Source: Leucoraja ocellata (taxonomy: Eukaryota). From it: a stretch of DNA of 64,000 bases. The position numbers and the translations under genes are program-made. The DNA lies in contig JAWMAR010000028.1 of NCBI GenBank assembly GCA_036785375.1, positions 10,044,001 through 10,108,000 on the forward strand, in the 5' to 3' direction. The notes under the pieces were generated by a model. The model did not search any database. It saw nothing but the letters and a program-made list of their open reading frames with translations, and was not told the DNA's origin. Below, in pieces: positions 9,467 to 60,210 of the stretch (position 1 is the first letter of the stretch; each line of letters opens with the position of its first letter).

Positions 9467-9487
9467 TCAATCTATACTTAAACTTAC

Positions 9488-11934: not shown

Positions 11935-12198
11935 CTTGAACCTGGAGTTTGGTGATGTTGATCTGCTTCCCCAGAGCATTAGTGGCCTCACATTGATACA
12001 GCCCTGCATCAGCTGGCTGGACATCACGGATTGTCAATGTCCCATTCTCAGAGTCTAGCTTGCTCCATCCGCTCGATGACTGCCTCCTCAGTACAAGCTG
12101 GGCAGCGGGGTTGGACTGGGTTGTGCAACTGAACGTGACCCTGTCTCCTTCCTTCACAGCAGAGGGGGTGATGGAGAGAGTGGTGTCCCTGGGGCTAC
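11935..12198 (-). CDS. VCAM1: VCAM1-like copy A exon 5, Ig domain (D7-like, repeat 1)
   Basis: 264 bp, AG/GT, phase 1-1; GSPRDTTLSITPSAVKEGDRVTFSC...KLQVQ. Confidence 0.88.
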
Positions 12199-12792: not shown

Positions 12793-13059
12793 CTTGAACG
12801 TGGAATTCCACCTCCTTGGTGATTGTCCCCAGTTTATTGCCGGCTTCACAGCGGTACATTCCCGTGTCCCCGAACAGGGCCGGTGACAGGTGCAGAATCG
12901 CTCGGTCCTCGGCCACGACTGACCAGTTGCCGGCAGATAACTTGCTCCACACTATCGTGGCAGCGGGGCTGCTGTCTGCAGCACAGGTTAGTCGAACATC
13001 CTGACCCTCTCTCACTGTGGCAGAGGGCTCTGCAGTAATATCAATCCATGTGGGAGCAT
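12793..13059 (-). CDS. VCAM1: VCAM1-like copy A exon 4, Ig D3
   Basis: 267 bp, phase 1-1; IVWSKLSAGN...DTGMYRCEAGNKLGTITKEVEFHVQ vs human D3 IFWSKKLDNGN...[25 protein letters not shown]. Confidence 0.92.
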
Positions 13060-13177
13060 CTGTAGAAGGAGATGGGATAATTCACTACATTAAAGGCGGG
13101 CGACTTAAACCATTGTCCAGACTACGTCTATGACTGTGATTCCGTTCTCAATGTTATATCTCTGTCTCCATACTTAC

Positions 13178-13480
13178 AGTGAACCTGTAACGTTAGCGAC
13201 CCCTCGGCCTTGCGTGGTTGGTTCTCCGTGAGTAATTGCACTCGGCATGTCAGCTCTTGTCCCGAGTCTCGCAATTCAGCCGTCAGTTCGTAGGTGAAGT
13301 TCATCGCCGTTTCTTCCTCTGTGTAGTCACGGAAGCTGTCGGTCTTCAGCAATGTTGTTCCTTTCAGCCACTCCACCTCCACTTGAGCGGGGTAGACTTT
13401 GGGGACCGTACATCTCACGGAGCCTCTCTGGCCAACTTCCAGACTGCCCACAGTCTCCACGATGAGTGTGTCGGACAGAG
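13178..13480 (-). CDS. VCAM1: VCAM1-like copy A exon 3, Ig D2
   Basis: 303 bp, phase 1-1; GSLEVGQRGSVRCTVPKVYP...WLKGTTLLK...ELTCRVQL...LQVH vs human D2 GPLEAGKPITVKCSVADVYP...LLKGDHLMK. Confidence 0.92.
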
Positions 13481-14295
13481 CTGCAACGACACGTGGATTC
13501 AGGAATCAAACAGGGATTCAGGGTGTAATGTACAGCACCCAAGTTGCCCATCGATTTAGTCAGAGGGTGGTGAATCTGCAGAATTCATTGCCACAGAAGG
13601 CTGTGGAGGCCAAGGCAATGGATATATTTAAGGCAGAGGTAGGCAGATTCTTAATTAGTACGGGTGTCATAGTTTATGGGAGAAGGCAGGAGAATGGGGT
13701 TAAGAGGGAGAGATGGATCAGCCATGAGTGAATGGCGGAGTAGACTCGATGGGCCGAATGGGCAAATTCTGCTCCCATCACTTATGATTTGTTACTAAAC
13801 TCTCGTTCCAATCTGCAAAAGGACAACTTTCATGTCAGAAAACATTCATGAATCTGTTAACTAAAATATTTGTTGAAGACCAAAACAAAGACAATCGTTG
13901 GAAGGCCCTGAATAAAACAGCGTGTGCCGGAAATACTCATCTGGCAGGCAGTATTGGTGGAGAGAAAACAGAGGTGATTCTTGTCGGTTAGAGATCTTTG
14001 CTCTCCCCCGATGCTGCGCTACAACGAGTGAAATCTCCCCAGAACAATGACCTTTCAGTGTTAGGAAAGAACTGCAGATGCCGGTTTAAACCGAAGATAG
14101 ACACAAAAGGCTGGAGTAACTCAGCGGGACAGGCAGCATCTCTGAGAGAGAAGGAACGGGTAAGGTTTCGGGTCGAGATTCTGTTTCTCTCTTCGTGGAG
14201 GTTGCACGAATAATTGAGTATTTCCAGTATTTTTTTAACTTTTATCTGGACGGACAAAGTTGCGACAAGTTTCCAGTCAGGAGATGGGTTAATAC

Positions 14296-16207
14296 TAGGT
14301 ATGTTACAAAAGTTACCTTCTGCGGCGCTGCAGTTCTGCCACTGGCCGTGTGTGTGACTTTGGCTCCTTTGGAGGGGGGGGGGGGGGGGGGGGGGGGCGG
14401 GTTTAAAATGTGTTTTTTCTCCTGCCTGTCCTGGATATATTTTCTAGGAGTGCAAGCTTTTGCTGAAGAATTGTTCCGACGGCCAACAATTTTTTTAATT
14501 TTATTAAATCGCCCAACAATTTCAGCACTGGAGTAATTTAAAAATCAGCTTCTAAAGCCGTCAACGCCGACAATGGGGACGGATTTCAGGTACGGGACAG
14601 GTAAAGGAAAGCCGTTTATTTTACATATAAACGTGCTTCTTAGGATGCCTTTAATCCACATTTTACATTGCGAAACGGTGATTTAGGCCCCATATGAACC
14701 GGCAGTATTTTACCTGCTGATATGGGGTGTAAATTCACCGCAACCGCAACGTTCCAAACGATCGCGTTCCTCACAAATCCACTCGCAAGATGATTAAAAT
14801 GGCCATTAATTTATGGGAATTAAACACTAAATTCCTTCCATTTGGCCTATAAATCCATGACAATGAGATTTAGAAATCATGTTATGGTGTGAATTCTTGT
14901 GTGAATGTTATTTGGACATTTAGGCTATTTAAAAATGCTAATCTTTTCTTAAGAAATGGATAGATGTTTAGATCTAGTAATTGAATTTTGTAATTAACTA
15001 CAATTGGGTAACTAACTAATTATATGCTTTAATTTCAGGTCATCCAAGTAAACTTGTTTTATATTTGTTTCAGAATGCTTCAATCTATAATAACTGAACA
15101 TTTCTCTCAGTTCTCTTAATTTTTAAGAAAGTTATGGGCTTTTGACTGTCCTTGATCACAGCTTTTGTGCTAAGTCAATGGAAAAGCAATAGGCAGTCGG
15201 GTCACGACCCATGACTCTGTTGCTACGCTACTCCAAATGGAGTACACGCGATGTACTACAGGTAGGCACTTACCATTGTTTCCAACGTAGCGGGCCCGTT
15301 AAAACCCGCCGAAAATGGCAATTTTTGCGCTGCAAATAATGATGGAAATCGGGATAAGCGTGTGAGACATTTAGCCTACTTCAGAATTCCAAAAGTGAGG
15401 AGAAATGACGGTAGATGGAAGTGAGAGCTGAAGGGACAACAACAGACAAAGTGCTTAGCGAACATTGGCCGTTTGCTCACTGCATTTCATCAACTAAGGC
15501 ATTATTTGTGTTTTTTCTTGATTTCTTTGGCATCTAAAAAGTTTCAGAAGTGATAAATCTCGTGGGGTTTACATACAAAATGAAAACGCATCTGAAGGAA
15601 AATTTACAGCCAGATTGATCACTTCTGAGACTTTTTAGATACCAAAGGAATCAAGAAAAAACACAAATAATGCCTTACTGTTGATGAAATGCAGTGAGCA
15701 AACGCGATAATTCCAATATTTTCAATTACGATATCTGCACGGCCAATGTTTACCAAGCACTTTAGCTGCTGTTGTCCCTTCAGCTCTCGCTTCTCTTTAC
15801 CTTCATTTCGCTTCACGTTTGGAATTCTAAAGTTGGGTACATGTCTCTCACACTTACACCGATTTCCACAATTTTTTACAGTGCAAAAATTCATCATTTT
15901 GGCGGTTTTTAACAGGTAGGAAAGTACGCGTTTTTTGCATTAATAACATATACTGGAAGTGACGGATGTCCTCCAGATGGATTGAGCGGCTCCATGCGTC
16001 AAGCCCTATGACCCAGTGACCTTACGTGCAACCCCCCTATAGGGAACAAGATGCTAATTTCCGAGTATGAAAATGGCTATAACTTTTTTAATACTGTAGA
16101 TATGAAAGTGAAATATAGGTGTCAAATTAAACTTCTTTTTATGCTTTATCTGATGGGATAAATTGCAGACATGATTTTTTAAATCACAACATTTTGTAAC
16201 ATTGCTA
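14296..16207. mobile_element. Non-autonomous DNA transposon with two inverted THAP-domain remnants
   Basis: TIRs TAGGTATGTTACAAAA / TAGCAATGTTACAAAA; 7-8 bp duplication TTAATAC(T); absent from copies B and C; FCTVKNCG...FRIP...RVCSLHF remnants. Confidence 0.8.
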
Positions 16208-16218
16208 TTAATACTCAC

Positions 16219-16494
16219 AGAATATATTGAGGTTGGCATATTTTCTTTTTTCTTCTGTGCCGCATTTTGCGGAACAAGTGTACTTGTGTTGGTTCTGCGG
16301 GGTCACCGCGGAGATGGTGAACTTGGACACCGAGCCCCGAGTTGTGATTGTTCCGCCCAGGGGGTTATCGGTCCCGATTCTCCACGTGAAGGTCGGAGAC
16401 GAGCAGCTCTTCGCCTCACAGTTCAACTCCAGCGAGTCCCCGATACGAGCCCACACGTTTCTAGACGGGTTTAACTCCAAATTGAAGGCGGATC
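16219..16494 (-). CDS. VCAM1: VCAM1-like copy A exon 2, Ig D1 (integrin-binding domain)
   Basis: 276 bp; ARIGDSLELNCEAKSCSSPTFTWRIGTDNPLGG...YTCSAKC vs human [33 protein letters not shown]...YLCTATC; four-Cys pattern. Confidence 0.95.
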
Positions 16495-16683
16495 CTGCAG
16501 TTTTGAAACAACACACAAGCAATATTATTTTTTAAAAGCTTACAAGTTTAACGCTTTAAATATTCACCTCTTCATTTCTTTAAACAAACAGATACCAAAA
16601 TTGATACTTTGGTGCCTGAGATTTAACACAAAACGAATCGTTAGAAAATGCAGATTAATAGTGATGTAAAATAAATGAGAAAC

Positions 16684-16744
16684 CTGTGGCGAGCATCAAT
16701 GCAAGAGTAATTGTAGTGGCTGGGTCGCATCTGTCTCCAGCCAT
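16684..16744 (-). CDS. VCAM1: VCAM1-like copy A exon 1, signal peptide
   Basis: Kozak ACCATGG; MAGDRCDPATTITLALMLAT(G); phase-1 GT donor fits exon 2 (GSA|F cleavage). Confidence 0.88.
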
Positions 16745-28187: not shown

Positions 28188-28690
28188 AAGGGCCTGTCCC
28201 ACTTAGGTGATTTTTTTGGCGTCTGCTAGCAACTGTCATAATCGTAGCTGGTCGCCCGAAAAACCGGCAACTGGACCCCCCTACAACAATGTCTACGACA
28301 AGCTACAATAACCTAGCACCTACTCAACATCAAGCTACCGCAAGCTACCAACAGCGGACGACCCATTAGGATGTCCACCTAAGACCACACCTACGTCCAT
28401 CCGCGACCAGCTATGACAAGCTATGACCCTGTCGGCAACAACTGAAGACAACTTCAGCCAATTCAGTCGCCGCTACCCGTCGCTGGTTGAGGGAGATTGA
28501 CGGAGGTAGTCGCCAATGGAATTCACCGAAGTCAGCACCGGCGACAACCTACGTCACCTGGCAACAATCTACGTCACCTGGCAACAACCCATGTCATCCT
28601 GGCGCCAACCTTGGACAACACCTACGTCGGGAGACGTCAAGCTACGCTCATTGGCATCAAGCTCACTGTCACCGACTGTCGACCGGAAAC
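28188..28690. mobile_element. Harbinger/PIF-like MITE (GGGCCTGTCCCACT terminus), partial; abuts the broken 3' end of copy B
   Basis: TTAAGGGCCTGTCCCACTTAGG start; homologous to 43960-44792; superfamily inferred from the terminus only. Confidence 0.6.
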
Positions 28691-28691
28691 T

Positions 28692-28826
28692 GGTGTATTT
28701 TTCAAGGATTGTAAAGCTGTTGTTACTGAAGGACAGCACATTTTCACTGTTGTTCACTACTTTCTTCCAGGTGAAATTGGCTGAGGGGATGTTATGAATG
28801 GTGCAGCCAATGGTGACCTTTTCTCG
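28692..28826 (-). pseudogene. Remnant of the frameshifted Ig exon in copy B
   Basis: EKVTIGCTIHNIPSANFTWKK...NNSFTILEKYT; homologous to about 9567-9700; both ends lost. Confidence 0.85.
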
Positions 28827-29070
28827 CCATATATAATAATCACCATGACTTGTCAGCTCAAGTTTCTGTTCAAGGAATTAGTCACAAAAAGCTAGAAAGT
28901 CTCTCCAGTCCTGTGCCAAAGGATGGCAGCAGTTAGTTACACTTTCACATACGTTGTTAAATTAAAACCCCCTCTAGTTGACATAAACGATTCTGCAACA
29001 CAATTCTAAATTTAAAGTGCCAGAGTTCTGCCCAGTTTATTCCTGCATCCTGGTCAATATTTATCACTAA

Positions 29071-29928
29071 AGGGAAGGGGGGTTCCCCTCTTCTATTATA
29101 GATGAGGCTCTCACCAGGATCCCTTCTATACCATGCAACTCTGCTCTCACTCCCCATCCCTCCACTCGCAACAAGGGCAGAGTCCATCCACCTTGTCCTC
29201 ACCTTCCACCCAACCAGCCGTCACATACAACAAATAATCTTCCAACATTTTCGCCACCTCCAATGGGATCCCACCACTGCCCATATCTTCCCATCTCCTC
29301 CCCTGTCTGCTTTCCGCAGAGCCCGCTCCCTCCATATCTCCCTGGTCCATTCGTCCCTTCCCCATCCAAACCCCCCCTCTCCTGACACTTTCCCTTGCAA
29401 CCACAGGAAATGCTACACTTGTCGCTTTACCTCCACCCATGACTCCACTCAAGGACCCAAGCAGCCTTTCCAGGAGCGGCAGAGGTTCACCTGCACCTCC
29501 TCCAACCTCATCTATTGCATCCGCTGCTCTAGATGCCAGCTGCTTTACATCGGTGAGACCAAGCGTAGGCTTGGCGATCTCTTCGCCCAACACCTCCGCT
29601 CGGTCCGCATTAACCAACCTGATCTCCCGGTAGCTCAGCACTCCCATTCCAAATCCATCCTTTCTGTCCTGGGCCTCCTCCATGGTCAGAGTGAGGCCCA
29701 TCCCAGTGGTTTGAACATTGACTTCTCCAATTTTAGAAAGGCCCTGCTTTCTCCTCCCCTTCCCAGCTCTTCCTCAGCCCACTGTCTCCGCCTTTTCCTC
29801 AGCCCATTGTCTCAATTTTCTTCCTCCTCCCCCATGTCTGAAGAAGGGTCTCGACCCAAAATGTTGCCTATTTCCTTCGCTCCATGGATGCTGCCTCACC
29901 CACTGAGTTTCTCCAGTATTTTTGTCTA
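29071..29928 (+). mobile_element. Penelope-like element fragment (GIY-YIG)
   Basis: ORF 29102-29935 contains NLIYCIRCSRCQLLYIGETKRRLGD; terminal CTGAAGAAGGGTCTCGACCC motif. Confidence 0.88.
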
Positions 29929-29934
29929 TCTCTG

Positions 29935-30031
29935 ACAGGGGGGTTGGAGTGGTTTGTGCAGCTGAACGTGACACGGGCTCCATCCTTCACTTCGGAGGGG
30001 GTGATGGAGACAACGGTGTCCCTGGGGCTAT
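29935..30031 (-). pseudogene. Truncated, diverged D7-like exon remnant in copy B
   Basis: SPRDTVVSITPSEVKDGARVTFSCTNHSNPP, cut by the Penelope element; acceptor context lost. Confidence 0.85.
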
Positions 30032-30339
30032 CTCCCACGCGAGCGCAGCTACCTCCCAGCCTCAACTACCTCCTCTAGCAGCTTGTTCCATACACCCACC
30101 ACCCTTGCTGTGAAAAAGTTACCCCTCAGATTACTCTTAAATCTTTTCCCCTTCACCTTCAACCTTTGTTCCCTGGTCCTTGATTCACCTACTCTGGGCA
30201 AGAGACTCTGTGCATCTACCCGATCTATACATCCCGTGTTGTCTATTAATGATTGTTACAACCATAGATTATTGCAATTTATAATGATTCAGTTCCTGTT
30301 TATTTCCCATTAATTTCCACACATACTCATATATTCATA

Positions 30340-31020
30340 CTTACTTTATGAGCCAAGTATATATTGTAACATACGAGGAATTTTGATTTGCCATACAGTT
30401 ATACAACTAAAAAGCAATAAAAAACACAAAATACATTTTAGCATAAACATCCAGCACAGTGACTCCTCCACATTCCTCACTGTGATGGAAAGCAAAAAAA
30501 AGTTCGATCTCTTCCCTTCTTTGATCTCCAACAGTCAGGTGTCTTTCACCTTCCGTTGACGGGACGATCTTGACTCCCGTAGCCGGCAGCGGGCCCTATG
30601 TGTTGGGGCGATCAAGCTCCTACGTCGGGAGATGTCAGTTCCCCGCGCCGGGCGATCGGACCCCGGGTCGGGGCTAGTCGAACATCGTGTGGTTTTAGAG
30701 CTTCCCGGCTTGGTCTCTCCCGAGGCTGCAAGCCCTTGATGTTAAAGTCCACAGGCTGTGGATTGGAGCATCGATCCCAGGCAAAGGATCAGCTCCGATG
30801 GCAAGTCCACGCCTCCAGCTCCACGATGTTAGGCCGCAGAGTGACCAGAGATACGACCCGGAAAACAATCGCATCTCCAGCAAGATAAGTGATTTCCCCC
30901 GACCCCACTCCCCACATAAACAAACCAGAGAACATTAACACAAATTTTTAAATAATAATAGAAATAACAAAAAAAAGACAAAAGGGGAGACTGTTGGCGA
31001 AGCTGCCATCGCGGCACCAT
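30340..31020 (-). mobile_element. Unclassified interspersed repeat that supplies the candidate C-terminus of copy B
   Basis: Absent downstream of the D7-like exons in copies A and C; GC-rich body and LINE-like 3' end; family not identified. Confidence 0.5.
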
Positions 31021-31134
31021 CCGATATCGAACATTGAACCTGAAGTTTGTTGCTGTTGATCTGCTGGGTTGTGCAGTTGAATGTGACCCCGTCTCCTTCC
31101 TTCACATCGGAGAGAGTGGTGTCCCTGGGGCTAC
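30935..31134 (-). CDS. VCAM1: VCAM1-like copy B, candidate terminal exon (internally deleted D7-like exon reading into a hydrophobic, GPI-signal-like tail)
   Basis: Intact acceptor ctctgttctcAG; open in phase 1: GSPRDTTLSDVKEGDGVTFNCTTQQINSNKLQVQCSISDGAAMAASPTVSPFVFFLLFLLLFKNLC*; native donor degraded. Confidence 0.45.
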
Positions 31135-31171
31135 CTGAGAACAGAGGCGTGAGAAATTAATTAATTGCTAA

Positions 31172-32640
31172 AATAGAATATAGAATAGAATAGTTTCTTT
31201 ATTGTCATTGTAACATGAACCATGTACAACGAAATTTACAAATGTCAGCCAGTCAGTGCACCATTCAAACATTTCTAAAAGCTAACGATACATACAAGGT
31301 AAAATGTTAAAAAAAAGATAAACTAAAATAAATATCATGAAAATAGCACGCATAAACACCCAACCCTCCATCCTTCTGTCGATTTCACAGTGTACCACAG
31401 TCCCTTAGTATGTATCGCCCCCTGCGTTCCTTGGCAGCTACATTTAGTAGTGGGGTAAAAACTGTTTTTAAGTCTGTTTGTCCTTGTCCTTGTAGATCTG
31501 TACCGTCTGCCTGACGGCAACAGTTCAAACAGGGAGTGTCCGGGGTGGAAAATGTCCTTTATAATACTCTGATGCAGCGGGAACTGTGCAAGTCCTCCAA
31601 GGTAAGGAGAGGGCAGCTGACAATCCTCTGGGCATTGTCAATGGCCCTCTGGAGCGCTTTCCTCTGAGCCGCTGGTGTACCACGCATACACAGTTTGTTA
31701 GGATGCTCTCAATGGAGCACCGATAAAAGGACAGCAGCAGTCTCTGAGTGATGTTATTCTTCCCGAGCACCCTCAGGAAGTGCAGTCTCTGCTGGACCTT
31801 TTTCAGCAGCGCAGAGGTGTTCACGCTCCACGTCAGGTCCTCCTCAATATGAATTCCCAGGAAGCGGAAATCCACCACCCTCGCCACACAGTCCCCTCTG
31901 ATAATCAATGGTACCATGTCCGTTTTATTCTTCCTGAAGTCTATTATTATTTCCTTTGTCTTTAAGGTGTTGAGGAGCAGGTTATTTTCTCCACACCACA
32001 CTGTCAGCTGCTCCGCCTCATCCTGGTAGGCGTACTCGTCCCCCCCGGAGATGAGTCCCACCACCGTAGTGTCATCCGCAAATTTGACAATGTTGTTGCT
32101 GTGGTGGGCTGGGGTGCAGTCATGTGTGTAGATGGTGTAGAGCAGGGGGCTCAGCACGCAGCCCTGTGGAGAGCCGGTACTGAGGCTGAGGGCCGTGGAT
32201 GTATGATGGCCCACTCTGACTCTCTGGCTGCGACCCGACAGGAAGCTATTTATCCACATGCAGGTGGAGTGTGGAAGTCCCAAGTCCCCCAGTTTGTCCA
32301 CCAGTTTGTGGGGAAGGATGGTATTAAAAGCAGAGCTGTAGTCCACAAAGAGCATCCGCACGTAGCTCCCCCGCTGCTCCAGGTGAGACAGTGCAGCATG
32401 GAGAGCTGTGGCTACAGCGTCCTCTGTAGATCTATTTGCTCTGTACGCAAACTGGTGGGGGTCAAAGCTTCGGGGCAGAAGTGATGTGATATGACCCCGG
32501 ACCAGTTTTTCATTACACTTCATCACCACTGGTGTGAGTGCAACTGGCCGGTAGTCGTTGAGGCTGGAAATGTGGGTTTTTTTGGGCAAGGGGACTATGG
32601 TTGCGGACTTCAGACAGGGTGGAACAGGTTTAGCCAAAAC
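31172..32640 (-). mobile_element. Rex1/Babar-type non-LTR retrotransposon, 5'-truncated
   Basis: RT: [46 protein letters not shown]; C-terminus PSGRRYRS...RLKNSFYP; (TTCTA)n tail. Confidence 0.88.
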
Positions 32641-32776
32641 AGTGCGAAGAAACATAGTCATACTCATAAAGTGATACATTGTTGAAACAGGCCCTTCAGT
32701 CCAACCTGCCATCATGTCCCAGCTACACTAGTCCATGTCTCTCCAAATCTGTCCTACCCATGCACCTGTCTAATAA

Positions 32777-33037
32777 AGGGCCTGTCCCACTGATGCGACC
32801 TTTCAGCAACTGTTTTCGACCTTCAAGCTCGAGGGCACTCGCCTGAAAAACCTCGAGCTGGATCGACCGTCAACGATAAAACCGCGAGCTGGATCGACTG
32901 ACCGCACACATACATAAACACATCGCAAAGGTGGGGGCCAGGAAAGCGGGGGAGCGCGGTCTGAAATTCACACCCGTGATGAACAGGAAGGTAAAAGACG
33001 GTTGCACAGTGTACGGTAAGTCTTTTAGGGAGCGCGG

Positions 33038-33068
<31 letters not shown>

Positions 33069-33463
33069 TGGGGGGAGAGAAGTGGGGGGAGAAACTTTTA
33101 AGAATCTAGACAACTTATAATAAAGTTTAACATTACCGTTGGTTTTTTTGGTCCTGAAAACTCCAATAAGCCAATTAAAATGCCCGGTCAGCGAAGGAGA
33201 TTGCCTACGGCTGCCCTCGACTGCCTGTAACTACATAGCAACCCCACTCCACTACGAGTTCAAAAGAATCATGCCGACCAATTTTTACATGCGGAAAATT
33301 TCTCAACATGCTGAAACATTTTCCTCAACCTAATTGAGGCTGCGAGTATGCAGGAACTTCTCTCGAGAATCTCAAGGAGAGTTCCAGTGACATCATAGGA
33401 CCTCCTAGGACAACGTGTCAACCATGCTGCACGTTTGAGTTGAGGGCAAACTCTTCTAGAACT
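32777..33463. mobile_element. Harbinger-like MITE, partial
   Basis: Begins AAGGGCCTGTCCCACT; right end replaced by an L1 fragment. Confidence 0.5.
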
Positions 33464-34570
33464 CAAGTAGAATGGAATTATATGATTAAAGTATTGCAAA
33501 AATTTCAAATGGGAGAGAACTTCATCGCATGGATAAAATTATTATATAACAAACCCACGGCTAGAATATTAACTAATAATATACTATCTACGAAATTCCA
33601 ATTATCAAGGGGCAATAGACAAGGATGTTCATTATCACCGCTGTTATTTGCTCTGGTAATTGAACCTCTAGCTGAAAAAAATCAGAACACACCCGGATAT
33701 TTACGGTTATACTACAAAATATTCAAATAACAAAATATCTTTATACGCAGACGATGTACTACTGTATATCACAAAACCCCAAATGAGTATACCAAACATA
33801 TTAAATCAAATTGAGGACTTTGGATCTTTCTCAGGATACAGAATAAACTGAAACAAAAGTGAAATTATGTCGATAAAACCGAAAGACTCAACGCTGCTCT
33901 TGAAATTCCCCTTTAAAATAGCCACAGAAAAATTCAAATATTTAGGAATTGAAGTTACTAGAAACTATCACGCTATGTTTAACGCCAATTATAGCCCCTT
34001 ACTTAAGAAACTAAATAATCTAATCAAATTCTGGAAAACGCACCTGATGTCTTTAATAGGTCGAATAAATGCTATAAAAATGATCTTTTTACCACAAATC
34101 CTATATTTATTTCAATCAATACCTATATATCTTCCAAAAAAGTTTTTCAAAAAATTAGACTCAGACATTACAAATTTTATATGGGATTATAAATGCCACA
34201 GAATACAAAGAGCACACCTTAGTAAACCAAAAGAGATGGGTGGTCTAGCGATCCCTAACTTCATGTACTATAATTGGGCAGTAAATATTAAAAATATGAT
34301 TCACCTGCTGGACAATTCTGCCCAGCAGGTGGACTGGATTGTAATGGAGAGAGAGGACTGCTCTCTGTGTAATATAGGAGCGACTCTCCTCTCACCAATT
34401 AATCTGAATAACAAAAATTATAATAAAAATCTAATGATACATAGCACAATTAGAACTTGGAAACAAATAAAACAGAATCTAAAATTAAGAAATCTATCTC
34501 TTTTAATGCCAATAGTCAATAACCCATCATTTAAACCTTCAATTATAGATAAATCATTTACACAATGGGT
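33464..34570 (+). mobile_element. L1/Tx1 ORF2 internal fragment
   Basis: LSRGNRQGCSLSPLLFALVIEPLA, SLYADD, RINAIKMIFLPQILYLFQ; frameshift and stop present. Confidence 0.9.
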
Positions 34571-34680
34571 GTAAATGAGCCCTGGTGACATCCTGGTAAA
34601 TCTTCTCTCAACCCTTTCCAGCTTGACCACGTCTTTCCTATAACAATGATAGTAAAATTACAATAGTGAAACAAACACAC

Positions 34681-34947
34681 CTTGAACGTGGATTTCCACC
34701 TCCTTGGTGATTGTCCCCAGTTTATTGCCAGCTTCACAGCGGTACATTCCCGTGTCCCCGAACAGGGCCGGTGACAGGTGCAGAATCGCTCGGTCCTCGG
34801 CCACGACTGACCAGTTGCCGGCGGATAACTTGCTCCACACTATCGTGGCAGCGGGGCTGCTGTCTGCAGCACAGGTTAGCCGAACATCCTGACCCTCTCT
34901 CACTGTGGCAGAGGGCTCTGCAGTAATGTCAATCCCCGTGGGAGCAT
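34681..34947 (-). CDS. VCAM1: VCAM1-like copy B exon 4, Ig D3
   Basis: 267 bp, AG/GT intact, near-identical to copy A. Confidence 0.85.
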
Positions 34948-35065
34948 CTGTAGAAAGAGATGGGATAATTCACTACATTAAAGGCGGGCGACTTAAACCA
35001 TTGTCCAGACTACGTCTATGACTGTGATTCCGTTCTCAATGTTATATCTCTGTCTCCATACTTAC

Positions 35066-35368
35066 AGTGAACCTGTAACGTTAGCGACCCCTCGGCCTTG
35101 CGTGGTTGGTTCCCCGTGAGTAATTGCACTCGGCATGTCAGCTCTTGTCCCGAGTCTCGCAATTCAGCCGTCAGTTCGTAGGTGAAGTTCATCGCCGTTT
35201 CTTCCTCTGTGTAGTCACGGAAGCTGTCGGTCTTCAGCAATGTTGTTCCTTTCAGCCACTCCACCTCCACTTGAGCGGGGTAGACTTTGGGGACCGTACA
35301 TCTCACGGAGCCTCTCTGGCCAACTTCCAGGCTGCCCACAGTCTCCACGATGAGCGTGTCGGACAGAG
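35066..35368 (-). CDS. VCAM1: VCAM1-like copy B exon 3, Ig D2
   Basis: 303 bp, strong polypyrimidine acceptor, GTAAGT donor. Confidence 0.85.
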
Positions 35369-36453
35369 CTGCAACACAGAGAAAACAGAAGGAAAACTGC
35401 TCTCTTCAGACGCTGCGCTATAACGAGTGAAATCCCCCCAGAACAATGACCTTTCAGTGGAACAGCAGATGCTGGTTTAAACCGAAGATAGACACAAAAA
35501 GCTGGAGTAACTCAGCAGGACAGGTAGTATCTCTGAGAAAGAAGGAACGCAGGGCTGGGCTGGGCTGGCCTTAAGCCGATCAGACCGATTGCTGCCAATT
35601 GGGCCGAGCCCCGACGGGGGCAGCGCTGGAATCATCCAAAGCTCCGCTCTATGATCTTTGGAGAAATCTACTCTCGGCTCGGGTAGATCTACCCCGGGTG
35701 GAGGGAGGAGAGAGGGGTGGAGGGAGAGTAGAGGGATGGAGGGGGAAGAAAGGGAGAAGGGGAGGGGGGTGTGAGGGGAATGAAGAAGGGGAGGGTCGTT
35801 CCATCACGGTCCCGGGATAGCACTCCCGCCCCTCCACTCGCCGTGCTTCATGCACACATCCCCGCCTCCACCCCTCTCTCTCCCCGGGGACACGTGGTGA
35901 ACAATACAGGGCCGGGCCGGGGGTTGGAGCAATGTTTACAAACCTCGGCCTCAGCTCACACCCATCCGCCCAGACCCCAGCATCCGCTCATGCCGCCTCC
36001 CTCCCTTCTTTTCTTCGCTTCCTCCCTTCTCTCCTTCCTTCCCTTTCCTTTCTCTCCGCTCCATCCCTTCTTTCTCTCCTTCCCTCCATCCTTTGTCTAC
36101 TTCCCTCCCTGCCTTCTGTCCTTCCTCCCTTCTCTCCTTCCCTCCCACACACACACATAACGCACAGACAACTAACACACACACACACACAACTAAGTTA
36201 GGATGGGGTAGAAGCCCAAAGGGTAGGATGGGGCTGAACCCCACAATTTAATGCCTGGACTGGTTTTTCACGAATTGGTTTTCCAGGATCTATTTAATTA
36301 AATTACTTTTTTTTTTCATTTCACTGCCACTAAAACAAGTGGTATTGTAACGATGTACTTTTCAGAGGTGATCTACACATTTTGTTTGTTACTTGTAGGC
36401 TGGCCGGACAAAGTTGCAACAAGTTTACAGTCGGGAGATGGGTTAATACTCAC

Positions 36454-36729
36454 AGAATATATTGAGGTTGGCATATGTTCGTTTTTCTTCTGTGCCGCAT
36501 TTTGCGGAACAAGTGTACTTGTGTTGGTTCTGCGGGGTAACCGCGGAGATGGTGAATGTGGACACCGAGCCCCGAGTTGTGATTGTTCCGCCCAGGGGGT
36601 TATCGGTCCCGATTCTCCACGTGAAGGTTGGAGACGAGCAGCTCTTCGCCACACAGATCAACTGCAGCGAGTCCCCGATACGAGCCCACACGTTTCTAGA
36701 CGGGTTTAACTCCAACTTGAAGGCGGATC
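36454..36729 (-). CDS. VCAM1: VCAM1-like copy B exon 2, Ig D1
   Basis: 276 bp, open, TDNPL motif and four Cys intact. Confidence 0.87.
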
Positions 36730-36917
36730 CTGCAGTTTTGAAACAACACAAAAACAATATATATTTTTTAAACTTACAAGTTTAACGCTTTAAATATTCA
36801 CCTCTTTGTTTTTTTAAACAAACAGATACCAAAATTGATACTTTGGTGCCTGATATTTAACACAAGACGAATCCGAAGAAAATGCAGATTATTAATGGTG
36901 TAAAATAAATGAGAAAC

Positions 36918-36978
36918 CTGTGGCGAGCATCAATGCAAGAGTAATTGTAGCGGCTGGGTCGCATCTGTCTCCAGCCAT
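36918..36978 (-). CDS. VCAM1: VCAM1-like copy B exon 1, signal peptide
   Basis: MAGDRCDPAATITLALMLAT(G), phase-1 donor. Confidence 0.82.
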
Positions 36979-44792: not shown

Positions 44793-44803
44793 TTACTGAA
44801 ATA

Positions 44804-49581: not shown

Positions 49582-49748
49582 TCACAGTATCTCTCCTGCT
49601 ATATTGTAAGATTTTGTCAAGCTTCTGCGAAAGGCATAAAACAGAGCAGAACATATCAGTCCTGCTGATGCAAATGTGGCTCCTGCGCATAATGTTTCCA
49701 GAACACCCGGAGGAATCTCGGCAGGAGTTGTGATATCAGTTATTTTTT
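49582..49748 (-). CDS. VCAM1: VCAM1-like copy C terminal exon (TM + cytoplasmic tail)
   Basis: EKITDITTPAEIPPGVLETLCAGATFASAGLICSALFYAFRRSLTKSYNIAGEIL*; good acceptor. Confidence 0.86.
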
Positions 49749-49831: not shown

Positions 49832-50009
49832 CGATAACTTGTATTTCCACAAATCCTGTCTGTTTCCCTAGTTTATTAATCACTTTGACCTTACAAAGCC
49901 CAGTGTCACTTGCTGTATTTTTCAAGGGTTGTAAAGTTGTCGTTACTGAAGGACAGCACATTTTCACTGTTGTTCACTAGTTTCTTCCAGGTGAAATTGG
50001 CTGAGGGGA
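49832..50009 (-). pseudogene. 3' half of the frameshifted Ig exon in copy C
   Basis: Homologous to about 9488-9665, same A5 frameshift; the 5' half is displaced to 51991-52069. Confidence 0.85.
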
Positions 50010-50915
50010 ACAGGAGGAGGAGCCATCTTGGGGAACAGCTGCTAACCAGCAGCCGTCCGTTGAACTCACTTTTTTTGAGTTTTTAGTAAGTCCTGTCCTT
50101 TGCCTGTTGGAGAATGGACTTTTTAATGAGGGGGGAAGGAGGTAATTATACTTCTAGGTCCCTACCTGGTCGGTGAGGCAGCTTTTTCTCCGGGCTGCCC
50201 CGTCGACCCGTCCTCGTGGCCTACCAGCGGGCGTGGAGCGCTGTTTCCTGGCGGGGACCGCCCAGCACCTCGGCTTCGGTGGCAGCACAGCGCTGGGGCG
50301 CTATCGCGGAGTGGAGCGGGCGATGCCTTGCCTGGGTCGCCGCGCTGGAGCTCCGGTGAGCTGTGACCGCCGAGATCAACACCTCCGGGCTGCGGATCTG
50401 CGGAGCGGAGCGGCGCTGACTCTAACATCGGGAGCCTGGGAGCTCCAAACTGGCGCGGCCTTGTCGGCTTCGGAAGCCGCGGTCCCCAGTCAGGAAGCGG
50501 CCGTTCCAGGTGGCCCAGCCGCTGAGAGGACTCTCCCGACGCCGGGACAACACCACCCGGTGAGAACGGCCAGGAACATAGGGCCTCCGTTGAAGCAATA
50601 GCGGTGGCCTCAATAGGCCTGACTTTGGGTGAACTGGGGATGGGGACTGGACATTTTGCCTTCCACCACAGTGGTAACCATTGTGGGGAGATGATTTTTT
50701 TGTGTGTATGTAAACATGTTAGTCTGTGTCCAAGATGGCTGTCGGAAGGGAGAGTGGTCGCAGGCGCGCTTTAGCTGCCGCTGCTCTCTCTTCACATTGT
50801 GTTTTTGATTTTTTGTCTTTGGAATGAATTCTGTTTTTAATTTGTGTTTTGGTGATGTCTTTATTATTTATTTTATTCCGATTATATGTTTTATTATTCT
50901 TGTTAATCTCTGTAA
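50010..50915. mobile_element. Unclassified GC-rich interspersed repeat(s) at the break in the degenerate exon
   Basis: Absent from copy A at the homologous position; family not identified. Confidence 0.5.
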
Positions 50916-51275
50916 GGATCCCAACTTGAAACGTTACCCATCCATGTTCTCCAGGGATGTTACCCGACACACTGAGTTACTCCAGAACTTTGTGTCTTGT
51001 TGTTGTTGTAAATCAGCATATACAATTTATTTTTCTTCATCATTACAACTAATTGGTTTTCCTCACATTGCTCTTTGTGAGAATGTGCTGCACCACATTT
51101 CATTGCTTCACATGTCAAAGGCACTTTATTGGTGATAAAGTGTTTGCGTAGTCCTGAATGGTATGAATGTTCCCCCATAAATCCACATCATTCTTTCCCC
51201 CCCCTAGTAATAATTCAAGTGAAAATACTTTTTACATTCAGTTCCTGTAAATTTCTCATTAATTTCCACACAAAC

Positions 51276-51539
51276 CTTGAACCTGGAGTTTGGTGATGTT
51301 GATCTGCTTCCCCAGAGCATTAGTGGCCTCACATTGATACAGCCCTGCATCAGCTGGCTGGACATCATGGATTGTCAATGTCCCATTCTCAGAGTCTAGC
51401 TCGCTCCATCCACTCGATGACTGCCTCTTCAGTACAAGGTGGGCAGAGGGGTTGGACTGGGTTGTGCAGCTGAACGTGATATTGTCTCCTTCCTTCACAG
51501 CAGAGGGGGTGATGGAGAGAGTGGTGTCCCTGGGGCTAC
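51276..51539 (-). CDS. VCAM1: VCAM1-like copy C, D7-like exon repeat e
   Basis: 264 bp, AG/GT, open; extra NIT sequon. Confidence 0.8.
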
Positions 51540-51990
51540 CTGAAACCAGAGGCGTGAGAAATTAATAAATTGCAAAATGTTTAGACAAATCCATGCAAAG
51601 AAACATAGTCATAGTCATAAATTGATATAGTGTGGAAACAGGCCCTTCGGCCCAACTTGCCCAAACCAGCCATCATTTCCCAGCTACACTCGTCCCACCT
51701 GCCCGCCTTTATTCCATGTCCCTCCAAACCTGTCCTATCCATGTACCTGTCTAACTGTTTCTTAAATGTTGGGATAGTCCCAGTCTCAACTACCTCCTCT
51801 AGCAGCTTGTTCCATACACCCACCACCCTTGGTGTAAAAAGGTTATCCCTCAGATTCATATTAAGTCTTTTCCCTGACACATTAAACCTATGTTCTCTGG
51901 TCCTGGATTCACCTACTCTGGGCAAGAGATTCTATACATCTTGAGATTTCTGAAAGACGCCCAAAAATAAAATTTAGTGTTATTAATATT

Positions 51991-52069
51991 ATGTTATGAA
52001 TGGTGCAGCCAATGGTGACCTTTTCTCCTTCATCGACCAGTTTGAAAGGGTGAGCCCAAACAGTCAGGT
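51991..52069 (-). pseudogene. 5' half of the frameshifted Ig exon in copy C
   Basis: DLTVWAHPFKLVDEGEKVTIGCTIHNI. Confidence 0.85.
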
Positions 52070-52317
52070 CTGGTGATGAGAGAGAAAATACATGTCCAAT
52101 GACTTTGTGCATCTACCTGATCTATACATCTCATGATGTCTATTAATGATTGTTACAATCATGGATTATTGCAATGTCCAATAATCACCATGACTTGTGA
52201 GCTCAAGTTACTGTTCAAGGAATTAGGCACAAAAAGCTCCAGCTTTGTGTCTTGTTGTTGTTGTAAATCAGCATATACAATTTATTTTTCTACATCATTA
52301 CAACTAATTGGATTTCA

Positions 52318-52544
52318 TCACATTGCTCTTTGGGAGAATTGATACCAACCTGCATCAGCTGGCTGGACATCACGGATTGTCAATGTCCCATTCTCAGAGT
52401 CTAGCTTGCTCCATCCACTCGATGACTGCCTCCTCAGTACAAGCTGGGCAGGGGGGTTGGACTGGGTTGTGCAGCTGATCATGACCCTGTCTCCTTCCTT
52501 CACAGCAGAGGGGGTGATGGAGAGAGTGGTGTCCCTGGGGCTAC
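52318..52544 (-). pseudogene. Copy C D7-like repeat d, 3'-deleted (acceptor intact, donor and second Cys lost, in-frame stop)
   Basis: ...DVQPADAGWYQFSQRAM*; deletion junction near 52340. Confidence 0.82.
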
Positions 52545-53628
52545 CTGAAACCAGAGGCATGAGAAATTAATAAATTGCAAAATGTTTAGACAAATCCGTA
52601 CCAAGAAACATAGTCATAGTCATAAAGTGATATAGTGTGGAAACTGGCCCTTCGGCCCAACTTGCCCACACCAGCCATCATTTCCCAGCTACACTCGTCC
52701 CACCTGCCCGCCTTTATTCAATGTCCCTCCAAACCTGTCCTATCCATGTACCTGTCTAACTGTTTCTTAATTGTTGGGATAGTCCCAGCCTTAACTACCT
52801 CCTCTAGCAGCTTGTTCCATACACCCACCACCCTTGGTGTAAAAAGGTTATCCCTCAGATTCCTATTAAGTCTTTTCCCTGACACATTAAACCTATGTTC
52901 TCTGGTCCTTGATTCACCTACTCTGGGCAAGAGACTCTATACATCTACCTGATCTATTCATATCATATGTCTATTAATGATTGTTACAATCATAGATTAT
53001 TGCAATGTATAATAATCACCATGTCTTGTCAGCTCAAGTTTCTGTTCAAGGAATTAGACACAAAAAGCTAGAAATTCTCTCCACTCCTGTGCCAAAGGAT
53101 GGCAGCAGTTAGTTACACTTTCACATACGTTGTTAAATTAAAACCTCCTCTAGTTGACATAAAAGATTCTGTAACATAATTTTAAATTTAACGTGGCAGA
53201 GTTCTGCCCAGTTTATTCCTGCATCCTGGTCAATATTTATCACTAAACCAACATGTGTCTGAAGAAGGATCCCAACTTGAAACGTTACCCATCCATGTTC
53301 TCCAGGGATGTTACCCGACACACTGAGTTACTCCAGAACTTTGTGTCTTGTTGTTGTTGTAAATCAGCATATACAATTTGTTTTTCTTCATCATTACAAC
53401 TAATTGGTTTTCCTCACATTGCTCTTTGTGAGAATGTGCTGCACCACATTTCGTTGCTTCACATGTCAAAGGCACTTTCTTGGTGATAAAGTGTTTGCGT
53501 AGTCCTGAATGGTATGAATGTTCCCCCATAAATCCACATCATTCTTTCCCCCCCCCCTAGTAATAATTCAAGTGAAAATACTTTTTACATTCAGTTCCTG
53601 TAAATTTCTCATTAATTTCCACACAAAC

Positions 53629-53892
53629 CTTGAACCTGGAGTTTGGTGATGTTGATCTGCTTCCCCAGAGCATTAGTGGCCTCACATTGATACAGCCCTG
53701 CATCAGCTGGCTGGACATCACGGATTGTCAATGTCCCATTCTCAGAGTCTATCTTGATCCATCCGCTCGATGACTGCCTCCTCAGTATAAGGTGGGCAGG
53801 GGGGTTGGACTGGGTTGTGCAGCTGAACGTGACCCTGTCTCCTTCCTTCACAGCAGAGGGAGTGATGGAGAGAGTGGTGTCCCTGGGGCTAC
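53629..53892 (-). CDS. VCAM1: VCAM1-like copy C, D7-like exon repeat c
   Basis: 264 bp, AG/GT, open. Confidence 0.85.
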
Positions 53893-54979
53893 CTGAAACC
53901 AGAGGCGTGAGAAATTAATAAATTGCAAAATGTTTAGACAAATCCATGCAAAGAAACATAGTCATAGTCATAAAGTGATATAGTGTGGAAACAGGCCCTT
54001 CGGCTCAACTTGCCCACACCAGCCATCATTTCCCAGCTACACTCGTCCCACCTGCCCGCCTTTATTCCATGTCCCTCCAAACCTGTCCTATCCATGTACC
54101 TGTCTAACTGTTTCTTAAATGTTGGGATAGTCCCAGTCTCAACTACCTCCTCTAGCAGCTTGTTCCATACACCCACCACCCTTGGTGTAAAAAGGTTATC
54201 CCTCAGATTCCTATTAAGTCTTTTCCCCGACACATTAAACCTGTGTTCTCTGGTCCTTGATTCACCTACTCTGGGCAAGAGACTCTATACATCTACCTGA
54301 TCTATTCATATCATGATGTCTATTAATAATTGTTACAATCATAGATTATTGCAAAGTATAATAATCACCATGACTTGTCAGCTCAAGTTTCTGTTCAAGG
54401 AATTAGGCACAAAAAGCTAGAAAGTCTCTCCACTCCTGTGCCAAAGGATGGCAGCAGTTAGTTACACTTTCACATATGTTGTTAAATTAAAACCCCCTCT
54501 AGTTGACATAAAAGATTTGGTAACACAATTCTAAATTTAAAGTGGCAGAGTTCTGCCCAGTTTATTCCTGCATCCTGGTCAATATTTATCACTAAACCAA
54601 CATCAGTCTGAAGAAGGATCCCAACTTGAAACGTTACCCATCCATGTTCTCCAGGGATGTTACCCGACACACTGAGTTACTCCAGAACTTTGTGTCTTGT
54701 TGTTGTTGTAAATCAACATATACAATTTGTTTTCTTCATCATTACAACTAATTGGTTTTCCTCACATTGCTCTTTGTGAGAATGTGCTGCACCACATTTC
54801 ATTGCTTCACATGTCAAAGGCACTTTCTTGGTGATAAAGTGTTTGCGTAGTCCTGAATGGTATGAATGTTCCCCCATAAATCCACATCATTCTTCCCCCC
54901 CCCCCCCCTAGTAATAATTCAAGTGAAAATACTTTTTACATTCAGTTCCTGTAAATTTCTCATTAATTTCCACACAAAC

Positions 54980-55243
54980 CTTGAACCTGGAGTTTGGTGA
55001 TGTTGATCTGCTTCCCAAGAGCATTAGTGGCCTCACATTGATACAGCCCTGCATCAGCTGGCTGGACATCACGGATTGTCAATGTCCCATTCTCAGACTC
55101 TAGCTCGCTCCATCCGCTCGATGACTGCCTCCTCAGTACAAGGTGGGCAGGGGGGTTGGACTGGGTTGTGCAGCTGAACGTGACCCTGTCTCCTTCCTTC
55201 ACAGCAGAGGGGGTGATGGAGAGAGTGGTGTCCCTGGGGCTAC
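54980..55243 (-). CDS. VCAM1: VCAM1-like copy C, D7-like exon repeat b
   Basis: 264 bp, AG/GT, open. Confidence 0.85.
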
Positions 55244-55447
55244 CTGAAACCAGAGGCGTGAGAAATTAATGAATTGCAAAATGTTTAGACAAACCGTGCG
55301 AAAAAACTGTCATAAAATGATACAGTGTTGAAACACGTCTTTCGGCTCAACTTGCCCGAAGCAGCCATCATGTCCCAGCTACACTAGTCCCGCCCGCCCG
55401 TGTTTGGCCCATGTCCCTCCAAACCTATCCTATCCATGTACCTGTCT

Positions 55448-56263
55448 AAGGTACACAGGAATGCTGGAGAAACTCAGCGGGTGCAGCAGCATCTATGGAG
55501 CGAAGGAGATAGGCAACGTTTCAGGCCGAAACCCTTCTTCAGACTGATAGGGGGTGGGGGAAGGCGGGGAGAAGAAAGGAAAAAGGAGGAGGGGCCCGAG
55601 GGCTGAGGGAGAGATAGGAAGGGGAGGAGACAGCAAGGGTTAACAGAATTGTGAGAATTCAATGTTCATGCCACCAGGATGCAGACTCCCCAAGGGGAAT
55701 ATGAGGTGCTGTTCCTCCAAATTCCAGTGTTGCTCACTCTGGCCGTGGAGGAGGCCCAGGACAGAGAGGTCGGATACAGAATGGGAGGGGGAATTGAAGT
55801 GCTGAGCCACCGTGAGGTCAGGTTGGTTAGTGCGAACCGAGCGGAGGTGTTCGTCAAAACGATCGCCAAGCCTACGCTTGGTCTCACCAATATAGATCAG
55901 CTGACATCTAGAGCATTTGGAGGAGGTGCAGGTGAACCTCTGTCGCACCTGGAACGACTGCTTGGGTCCTTGAATGGAGTCAAGGGGGGAGGTAAAGCGA
56001 CAAGTGTAGCATCTCTTGCGGTTGCAAGGGAAAGTACCTGGGGAATGGGGGGAGTGGGGGGAAGGGAAGAATTGACAAGGGAGTTACGGAGGGAGCAGTC
56101 TTTGCGGAAGGCAGACAGGAGGAGATGGGAAGATGTGGCGAGTGGTGGGGTCACGTTGGAGGTGGCGAAACTGACGGAGGACTATTTGTTGTATGTGCCA
56201 GCTAGTGGGGTGAAAGGTGAGGACCAGGGGGACTCTGCCCTTATTGCGAGTGGGGGGGGGGGG
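55448..56263 (-). mobile_element. Penelope-like fragment (paralogous to 10939-11766)
   Basis: YIGETKRRLGDRF; same flanking duplication CATGTACCTGTC. Confidence 0.85.
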
Positions 56264-56431
56264 CATGTACCTGTCCCTTAAATGTTGGGATAGTCCCAGC
56301 CTCAACTACCATGGATGGTATGAATGTTCCCCCATAAATCCAAATCATTCTTGTCCCCCCTTGTAATAATTTAAGTGAAAATACTTTTCACATTCAGTTC
56401 CTGTAAATTTCTCATTAATTTCCACACAAAC

Positions 56432-56695
56432 CTTGAACCTGGAGTTTGGTGATGTTGATCTGCTTCCCCAGAGCATTAGTGGCCTCACATTGATACAGCC
56501 CTGCATCAGCTGGCTGGACATCACGGATTGTCAATGTCCCATTCTCAGAGTCTAGCTCGCTCCATCCGCTCGATGACTGCCTCCTCATTACAAGGTGGGC
56601 AGAGGGGTTGGACTGGGTTGTGCAGCTGAACGTGACCCTGTCTCCTTCCTTCACAGCAGAGGGGGTGATGGAGAGAGTGGTGTCCCTGGGGCTAC
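56432..56695 (-). CDS. VCAM1: VCAM1-like copy C, D7-like exon repeat a
   Basis: 264 bp, AG/GT, open. Confidence 0.85.
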
Positions 56696-57450
56696 CTGAA
56701 ACCAGAGGCGTGAGAAATTAACGAATTGCAAAAAGTTTAGACAAACCGTGCGAAAAAACAGTCATAAAATGATACAGTGTTGAAACACATCTTTCGGCTC
56801 AACTTGCCCAAACCAGCCATCATGTCCCAGCTACACTAGTCCCGCCAGAGGCGTGAGAAATTAATGAATTGCAAAAAGTTGAGCCAAATCCGTGCAAAGA
56901 AACATAGTCATAATCATAAAGTGATATAGTGTGGAAACAGGCCCTTCGGCCCAAATTGCCCACACCAGCCATCATTTCCCAGCTACACTCGTCCCACCTG
57001 CCCGCATTTGGTCCATACCCCTCCAAACCTGTCCTATCCATGTACCTGTCTAACTGTCTTAAATGTTGGGATCGTCCCTGCCTCAACTACCTCCTCTAGC
57101 AGCTTGTTCCATACACCCACCAACCTTTGTGTGAAAAAGTTACCCCTCAGATTCCTACTAAATCTTTTCCCCTTCACCATAAACCTATGTCTGGTCATCG
57201 ATGCACCCACTATGGTCAAAAGACCCTGTGCATCCGCCCAATCTATTCCTCTCCTGATTTATACACCTCTATAAGATCATCCCTCACCTGCTCTCCAAGG
57301 AATAGAGTCCCAGCCTGCCCAACCTCTCCCTATAGCTCAGACCCTTTAGCTCTAGTGACATCCTGGTAAATCTTCTCTCAACCCTTTCCAGCTTGACCAC
57401 GTCTTTCCTATAACAATGATAGTAAAATTACAATAGTGAAACAAACGCAC

Positions 57451-57717
57451 CTTGAACGTGGAATTCCACCTCCTTGGTGATTGTCCCCAGTTTATTGCCG
57501 GCTTCACAGCGGTACATTCCCGTGTCCCCGAACAGGGCCGGTGACAGGTGCAGAATCGCTCGGTCCTCGGCCACGACTGACCAGTTGCCGGCGGATAACT
57601 TGCTCCACACTATCGTGGCAGCGGGGCTGCTGTCTGCAGCACAGGTTAGCCGAACATCCTGACCCTCTCTCACTGTGGCAGAGGGCTCTGCAGTAATATC
57701 AATCCCCGTGGGAGCAT
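57451..57717 (-). CDS. VCAM1: VCAM1-like copy C exon 4, Ig D3
   Basis: 267 bp, AG/GT, open. Confidence 0.92.
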
Positions 57718-59684: not shown

Positions 59685-59960
59685 AGAATATATTGAGTTT
59701 GGCATATGTTCGTTTTACATCTGCGCCGCATTTTGCGGAACAAGTGTACTTGTGTTGGTTCTGCGGGGTAACCGCGGAGATGGTGAACTTGGACACCGAG
59801 CCCCGAGTTGTGATTGTTCCGCCCAGGGGGTTATCGGTCCCGATTCTCCACGTGAAGGTCGGAGACGAGCAGCTCTTCGCCTCACAGTTCAACTCCAGCG
59901 AGTCCCCGATACGAGCCCACACGTCTCTAGACGGGTTTAACTCCAAATTGAAGGCGGATC
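59685..59960 (-). CDS. VCAM1: VCAM1-like copy C exon 2, Ig D1
   Basis: 276 bp, TDNPL motif, four Cys. Confidence 0.94.
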
Positions 59961-60149: not shown

Positions 60150-60210
60150 CTGTGGCGAGCATCAATGCAAGAGTAATTGTAGCGGCTGGGTCGCATCTGT
60201 CTCCAGCCAT
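60150..60210 (-). CDS. VCAM1: VCAM1-like copy C exon 1, signal peptide
   Basis: MAGDRCDPAATITLALMLAT(G), Kozak ACCATGG. Confidence 0.88.

Follow-up and report, generated by a model that had tools for sequence, protein, structure and literature searches.

Serial D7-class immunoglobulin exons in a tandem VCAM1 cluster of the skate Leucoraja ocellata

The seven-domain, two-site molecule of mammals is usually taken as the form of VCAM-1, and two studies place its integrin sites in domains D1 and D4 (PMC2119914, PMC2193422). The duplication of D1-3 into D4-6 to which this form is attributed was recognized in the bat protein (D1-D4, 65%; D2-D5, 51%; D3-D6, 61%). A 64,000-bp stretch of Leucoraja ocellata DNA (assembly GCA_036785375.1, contig JAWMAR010000028.1, positions 10,044,001 to 10,108,000; hereafter the window, with positions counted from its first nucleotide) raises the question of how a skate VCAM1 gene could have come to seven immunoglobulin (Ig) domains with one such site. 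A previous reading of these letters without database searches (the sequence-only reading) had answered that a single D7-like exon was serially amplified. We put at about 0.7 the probability of an account of this kind, namely a tandem VCAM1 cluster in which long interspersed nuclear element (LINE) remnants seeded the amplification of one exon, the number of copies changed afterwards, and the product is likely a longer rod with one integrin site.

The repeat array and its domain class

Three tandem VCAM1-like genes were found on the minus strand of the window, C (ATG at 60210), B (36978) and A (16744), each with intact exons for the signal peptide, D1, D2 and D3. For the domains searched, the top database proteins of the three genes were models of the skates Leucoraja erinacea and Amblyraja radiata, at 94-98% identity, and human VCAM-1 was the best match among solved structures for D1-D2 of the sawfish orthologue (E 2.6e-33). 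An N-terminal I-set D1 is followed by a C2/I2-type D2, both closest to VCAM-1, and the D1 integrin loop, which holds D40 in human, keeps its Asp, Pro and Leu, with Ile changed to Thr and Ser to Asn. The D1/D2 similarity, the retained Asp and the skate and sawfish orthologues bear out the previous identification of these genes as VCAM1. Copies A and C encode type I membrane proteins with a short tail, and copy B does not. Behind D1-D2 we distinguish three classes of Ig domain: a, the D3/D6 class; b, the D7 class; and c, a terminal domain without the second Cys that is absent from the bat protein. The exons of copy C are the following.

60150..60210, minus strand: signal-peptide exon, with a TATA box 114 nt above the ATG and a kB-like site about 30 nt higher
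59685..59960, minus strand: D1 exon (I-set), Asp, Pro and Leu retained in the integrin loop
57836..58138, minus strand: D2 exon, ICAM D2 family (E 5.5e-7)
57451..57717, minus strand: D3 exon, class a, with mammalian D3/D6
56432..56695, minus strand: repeat exon R1, intact, class b, D7-like
54980..55243, minus strand: repeat exon R2, intact
53629..53892, minus strand: repeat exon R3, intact
52338..52544, minus strand: repeat exon R4, truncated after nt 207
51276..51539, minus strand: repeat exon R5, intact, three sequons, within a 1982-bp insertion
49582..49748, minus strand: transmembrane and tail exon, phase 1, able to take splicing from any repeat exon

The repeat exons start at 56695, 55243, 53892, 52544 and 51539, that is, at spacings of 1452, 1351, 1348 and 1005 bp, and four of them are intact, with two more in copy A, exactly as had been claimed. 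R1, R2, R3 and R5 are 264 nt long, phase 1-1, with AG/GT ends and the same acceptors and donors, and all four carry the predicted NGT and NIT sequons, to which R5 adds a third. The description of five tandem units holds for the exon starts, but R5 lies inside the insertion and only four units stand head to tail. R4 has lost its final 57 nt and its donor. It has gained an in-frame GT donor after nt 195 (52350/52349), not found in the other six copies, through which it may be spliced as a half domain; Amblyraja models, the evidence behind which is not visible, stop one repeat at the same codon. Spliced from its intact exons, copy C would encode a protein of 709 aa in which there are seven Ig domains and 11 sequons. 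The six intact repeat exons of A and C differ pairwise by 3-12 nt and, since their introns are also structurally different, they are not identical echoes of the assembly. Copy B retains repeat remnants at 31134 and about 30033, with the same junction as copy C.

The class of the repeat was studied in a tree of 67 domains of classes a, b and c, from 19 of 33 proteins plus four window domains, from which Hyla, Rhinoderma, Nanorana, bonefish and both 14-repeat skate models were omitted. In this tree the repeat joins bat D7 on the b side (branch 82/77), the window D3 lies in class a along with bat D3 and D6, and a dead terminal exon of the window, described below, groups with shark c (96/92). Forcing the repeat together with mammalian D3/D6 was rejected by the approximately unbiased (AU) test (p-AU 0.0007), which upholds the D7-like class, and forcing cartilaginous-fish b with the D7 group was not rejected (p 0.49). 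Tetrapods have two b types, and the unconstrained tree places the repeat nearer the non-D7 type (89/76). The dead terminal exon was also tried as the D7 orthologue and was rejected (p 3e-6).

PMC2119914 reports that human D40 in the D1 integrin loop is needed for binding. The sawfish protein was modelled with a mean pLDDT of 85.8; its D1 Asp is found just behind strand C, 17 residues past the first Cys, and the equivalent place in b is occupied by Ala in the sawfish and by Ser in the skate repeat. Because there is no Asp at this place, it is reasonable to regard b as probably non-binding. The repeat is 22-25% identical to bat D1/D4, with Ser at the Asp position, and the second D1-like domain with an integrin loop that marks the bivalent mammalian form was not found in it. 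Motif position in the model and alignment agree with the previous claim of a single integrin-type motif in copy C, in D1 only. An LDS tripeptide of the repeat was considered as an integrin motif and discarded: it sits after the C' strand and not at the D40 position. Of the 7 shark and sawfish species compared, 4 lack this tripeptide.

From the sequence, the repeats would be spliced jointly, with b as a spacer. All copies being phase 1-1 and alike in their splice sites, VCAM1 would likely be made as a longer, glycosylated rod with a single integrin site at the tip.

LINE remnants and the history of the array

The sequence-only reading had suggested that LINE sequence in the introns could have seeded unequal crossover. 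Three elements of copy C bear on this.

56845..57400, minus strand: 3' remnant of a CR1-like LINE within the D3-R1 intron, serving as upstream partner at the repeat junction
55441..56263, minus strand: Penelope-like retroelement piece in the R1-R2 intron, common to the A1-A2 intron (95.6%)
53893..54979, minus strand: hybrid R2-R3 intron, resembling the intron downstream of the last repeat over its 5' 700 bp and the D3-R intron over its 3' 400 bp

In translation, the LINE remnant of the D3-R intron shares 45-50% identity with the ends of four further LINE copies elsewhere in the window. About 40 nt of this LINE, in the same register, also close the intron that follows the last repeat. In the R2-R3 intron the flanks switch inside the LINE remnant, near 54325-54281, and the R2-R3, R3-R4, R5-insert and copy B junctions all switch flanks within this same register. 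The unit is therefore flanked on either side by homologous LINE remnants, and the junctions lie inside them, which supports a role of the remnants as crossover seed; the pattern is that expected from unequal crossover, an event that we infer from it. We take the remnant to be CR1-like from the end motif of open reading frame 2 (ORF2), and the second element to be Penelope-like from a GIY-YIG-like motif. Of the LINE and Penelope-like pieces tested, none was assigned to a Pfam family.

The R1-R2 intron is 95.7% like the A1-A2 intron and, consequently, at least two repeats predate the separation of A and C. The acceptor flank of R1 resembles those of R2 and A2 and not that of A1, and identical amino-acid variants recur in differing combinations in three skates; both are, as far as sequences can tell, signs of continued exchange among repeats.

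A further Ig exon had been overlooked in copy A between the last repeat and the transmembrane exon (9743-9488, minus strand). It is of class c, 256 nt long, with good splice sites and a frame off by one base. The one-base gain, in an A run, is common to copies A, B and C, so the exon died before the gene triplication. Copy B keeps a remnant of it at 28825-28691 (minus strand). In copy C the exon is split.

51991..52069, minus strand: 5' piece of the class c exon, a dead terminal Ig exon
50009..51990, minus strand: 1982-bp insertion splitting the exon, made of about 50 bp of foreign DNA, a repeat-unit copy and about 900 bp of repeat-like DNA
49832..50008, minus strand: 3' piece of the class c exon, where the A run 49922-49918 has gained one base

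The repeat-unit copy in the insertion, 1030 bp long, is 97.6% identical to the R3 unit, and no target-site duplication was seen at the insertion in copy C. The repeat-like DNA alongside R5 (50913-50010) had no other match within the window. In copy A the splice sites of the class c exon are intact and its inclusion would yield a premature stop before the transmembrane exon, and with it decay of the message or a secreted form.

These features can be arranged in the following history. The jawed-vertebrate ground plan of VCAM1 would have been D1-D2-a-b-c-transmembrane exon, from which batoids would have lost c, preserved in skates as the frameshifted pseudo-exon. The b exon would have lain between two homologous LINE remnants, and unequal crossover between these could have given the first tandem copy before the gene triplication. 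Later unequal crossover, conversion and one insertion would have changed the repeat count to 2 in copy A, 5 in copy C and 14 in two skate models. The LINE remnants that probably seeded the exon duplication are still visible at the junctions.

Serial domains in other vertebrates and rival readings

Domain counts in other species were taken from database gene models. In L. erinacea, vcam1b (XP_055497216.1) consists of D1-D3, 14 repeats and a C-type transmembrane exon that differs from that of copy C, with its 5 units, at 8 of 54 residues, and the A-type gene has two repeats, like copy A, and an identical transmembrane exon (0/55 differences). The A. radiata model XP_032885016.1 likewise has D1-D3 and 14 repeats, 17 domains in all, under the name hemicentin-2-like. 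Five domains in the order D1-D2-a-b-c are found in whale shark, bamboo shark, chimaera and paddlefish, and seven, with b three times plus c, in sawshark, sevengill, white and horn shark (P0031-P0034). In a lungfish b occurs six times and in several frogs b-like domains follow one another in series; the a-b pair is repeated in stingrays and one chimaera entry, and D1-D2 is repeated in gar, coelacanth, teleosts and bat. Domain c was intact in all 7 of the shark and chimaera species examined and in none of the 6 batoid species. The proposal of a special route to seven domains is not supported, given the 14 repeats of two skate models and the serial b of sharks, lungfish and frogs.

In the four sharks the b bodies are 93-96% identical within species vs 75-77% between species, and the last strand is position-specific (81% identity internal-internal between species, 45% internal-terminal within). 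This mosaic points to an old array under concerted evolution. The skate copies all have the terminal-type b tail (58% vs 33% identity) and for this reason their array looks like an independent, younger expansion. Shark, lungfish and frog models (P0031-P0034, P0045, P0077, P0089, P0092) thus resemble the skate in having b in series behind a single D1-D2, but in sharks c is retained and the b tails are of two kinds. In gecko and snake models (P0040, P0041, P0065) a Ser/Thr-rich, mucin-like stalk replaces further Ig domains, which is another way to gain length.

The near-identical exon-intron tandem units of the skate are also like those of apolipoprotein(a) kringle IV-2 and the long homologous repeats of complement receptor 1, which change in number by unequal crossover and are polymorphic within species; unlike these, the skate count differences are known between genes and between assemblies only. 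Mammalian VCAM-1 (CD106) shares with the skate the domain-per-exon plan, the class of the last domain and the integrin-loop Asp, and differs from the skate C-type, which has one site and 4-14 near-identical b domains in a multi-gene cluster. PMC13187141 describes a similarly repeated, lineage-independent multiplication of ectodomains in a conserved vertebrate receptor, that of TGF-beta, although there the ligand-binding domain is multiplied and in skate VCAM1 a spacer. No account of variation in VCAM1 domain number in cartilaginous or other fishes was found among the titles and abstract openings searched, a search that left most subscription journals and supplements outside. The skate array is a real instance of tandem exon amplification, a known process, and the lability of the VCAM1 stalk is apparently undescribed.

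The sequencing-run comparison covered copy A at 8300-11000 only, in 4 of 24 listed runs. A raw RNA run (X23, about 6% read) gave almost no depth on the copy A exons there and a raw DNA run (X22) no match, too little for either to weigh in the question. Contigs of X15, RNA by guess and from another organism, covered the repeat exon (10468-10735) in several variants, none of them extending over the adjoining intron (10211-10392). In the contigs of X1, possibly the source sample, word depth was 106-121 on the repeat, against 31-32 for each of the two types of transmembrane exon; this is no copy number, but it fits the presence of several real copies.

Selection was considered from variants among the copies. 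D2+D3 showed 4 replacement and 9 silent variants across the three genes, significantly different from the repeats (Fisher p=0.011), and D1 showed 11 and 4 (p=0.056), several of them near the C-terminal strands, so that the binding domain is possibly diversifying between genes. All 37 full-length skate copies that were compared retain the two Cys and the two sequons. Several points weigh against the amplified-spacer account. One of the five units (R4) is broken and another (R5) sits inside a dead exon; the six intact repeats of the window have 15 replacement and 4 silent variants, a near neutral ratio; with 32 variable positions, the Cys and sequon conservation reaches only p=0.057, and gene models are biased towards intact copies; the b branch is moderately supported, D7-like being a statement of class and not of one-to-one orthology; no repeat-to-repeat read or contig appeared among the joints displayed for the copy A region (23 joints undisplayed); and the sawfish and Narcine models have only 3-4 domains. 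The repeats are accordingly loosely constrained, and the length of the stalk may or may not be under selection.

Several other readings were weighed against this account, which builds on the gene anatomy, the domain classes, the junction homology and the count differences observed between genes and assemblies. That reach is under positive selection, skates having re-extended their molecule after the loss of c toward a favoured length of about seven domains attainable by several routes, is a tentative and less likely reading. Seven-domain models of different architectures exist in bat, coelacanth, milkfish, caecilian and tailed frog, as well as in four sharks, a chimaera, a stingray and copy C, and the threefold b of sharks looks old from its homogenised bodies and position-specific last strand. 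By analogy with P-selectin, for which PMC2120654 gives five to six repeats as necessary for full capture under shear, an effect of VCAM1 stalk length on reach is plausible. However, Narcine, sawfish, whale shark, paddlefish and copy A have 3-5 domains and two skates 17, one protein search was limited to 245-781 aa, a range biased to seven domains, and the repeat changes look neutral. Equally tentative is the broader proposal of a graded-reach family made by gene duplication and exon copy number, which would comprise a three-domain B (possibly of GPI type), a five-domain A and a 7-17-domain C, the length of C alone segregating among individuals and D1 diversifying between the genes; across jawed vertebrates, selection on reach would have rebuilt about seven domains through at least five different duplications. 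We find it unlikely, a little more so than selection on reach, that the extra units are mostly skipped by-products of a redundant cluster and the protein shorter than the exon count suggests. The neutral-like replacement rate, the broken R4, the dead c and the decayed copy B would suit it, as would the weak-looking GTTTGT donor of all copies and the isoform models of Amblyraja, Narcine and Heptranchias that differ by b exons. However, 6 of 7 near-full-length copies in A and C keep the frame and identical splice sites, the A-type gene of L. erinacea has kept both its two repeats and an identical transmembrane exon, and several repeat variants occur in X15, a probable RNA run.

Two further readings concern the data and the origin of the repeat. 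R2-R4 form a 1.77-kb tandem at 95% identity, without a spanning read, and such an array might be an artefact of assembly; with copies that differ at 3-12 nt and carry insertions and deletions of their own, with arrays in two other skate assemblies and with the repeat depth of X1, this is very improbable. Even less credible is an origin of the repeat from the D3/D6 class, to which the small gap in identity to bat (36% to D3, 41% to D7) would lend itself; it conflicts with the AU test and with the place of the window D3 itself in class a. Taken together, the VCAM1 models show a five-class ground plan whose stalk was repeatedly lengthened or shortened, with skates as the extreme, at up to 17 domains, and they offer natural constructs to part reach from valency in integrin-mediated capture. 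If the extra exons are skipped or neutral, the locus would be a tidy case of recombination-driven exon turnover and little more.

Copies A and B, promoters and intergenic repeats

The remaining gene features of the window are as follows.

28680..36978, minus strand: copy B, with signal and D1-D3 exons intact, a deleted repeat exon at 31134, and remnants of a second repeat and of class c
8657..16744, minus strand: copy A, with signal and D1-D3 exons, two repeat exons, the frameshifted class c exon and a transmembrane exon
12198-11935 and 10733-10470, minus strand: repeat exons of copy A

With the class c exon skipped, the product of copy A has 534 aa. The D1 exons of the three genes lie at 59960-59685 (C), 36729-36454 (B) and 16494-16219 (A), minus strand. 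No transmembrane exon was found for copy B in the window. Its internally deleted repeat exon after D3 runs into repeat-like DNA, giving 368 aa (36978-30940, minus strand) with a short, strongly hydrophobic C-terminal tail (best 11-residue hydropathy 3.4). The intron-less open reading frame of copy B was also found on Logan contigs of about 1.2 kb (P0013, P0012), by which it appears to be spliced in skates. A three-domain, GPI-anchored form of mouse VCAM-1 is described in PMC2193422, and the three-domain, hydrophobic-tail form of copy B, with a putative anchoring, recalls it, though reached by a different route.

All three promoters have a site about 143 nt above the ATG that we take, from the consensus, to be kB-like, with the TATA box at 114 nt and a second, looser site higher up. 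Functional NF-kB elements are reported for the human VCAM1 promoter in PMC2119448.

Two annotation faults were noted: the B-type and A-type genes of L. erinacea are fused in one model (P0009), and the 17-domain skate VCAM1 P0008 (XP_032885016.1) carries the hemicentin-2-like name. Hemicentin is a giant secreted protein with a VWA domain and many diverse Ig, EGF and fibulin modules, and the Amblyraja protein was rejected as a hemicentin, its architecture being D1-D2-D3 plus 14 repeats. Finally, between the genes (21860-27680, 18670-19080 and 44775-45250) there are minisatellite-like arrays whose units measure about 48-51 bp, among other lengths, and one such array has a long open frame of Cys/Lys-rich repeats (27745-27077, minus strand), which is probably incidental.

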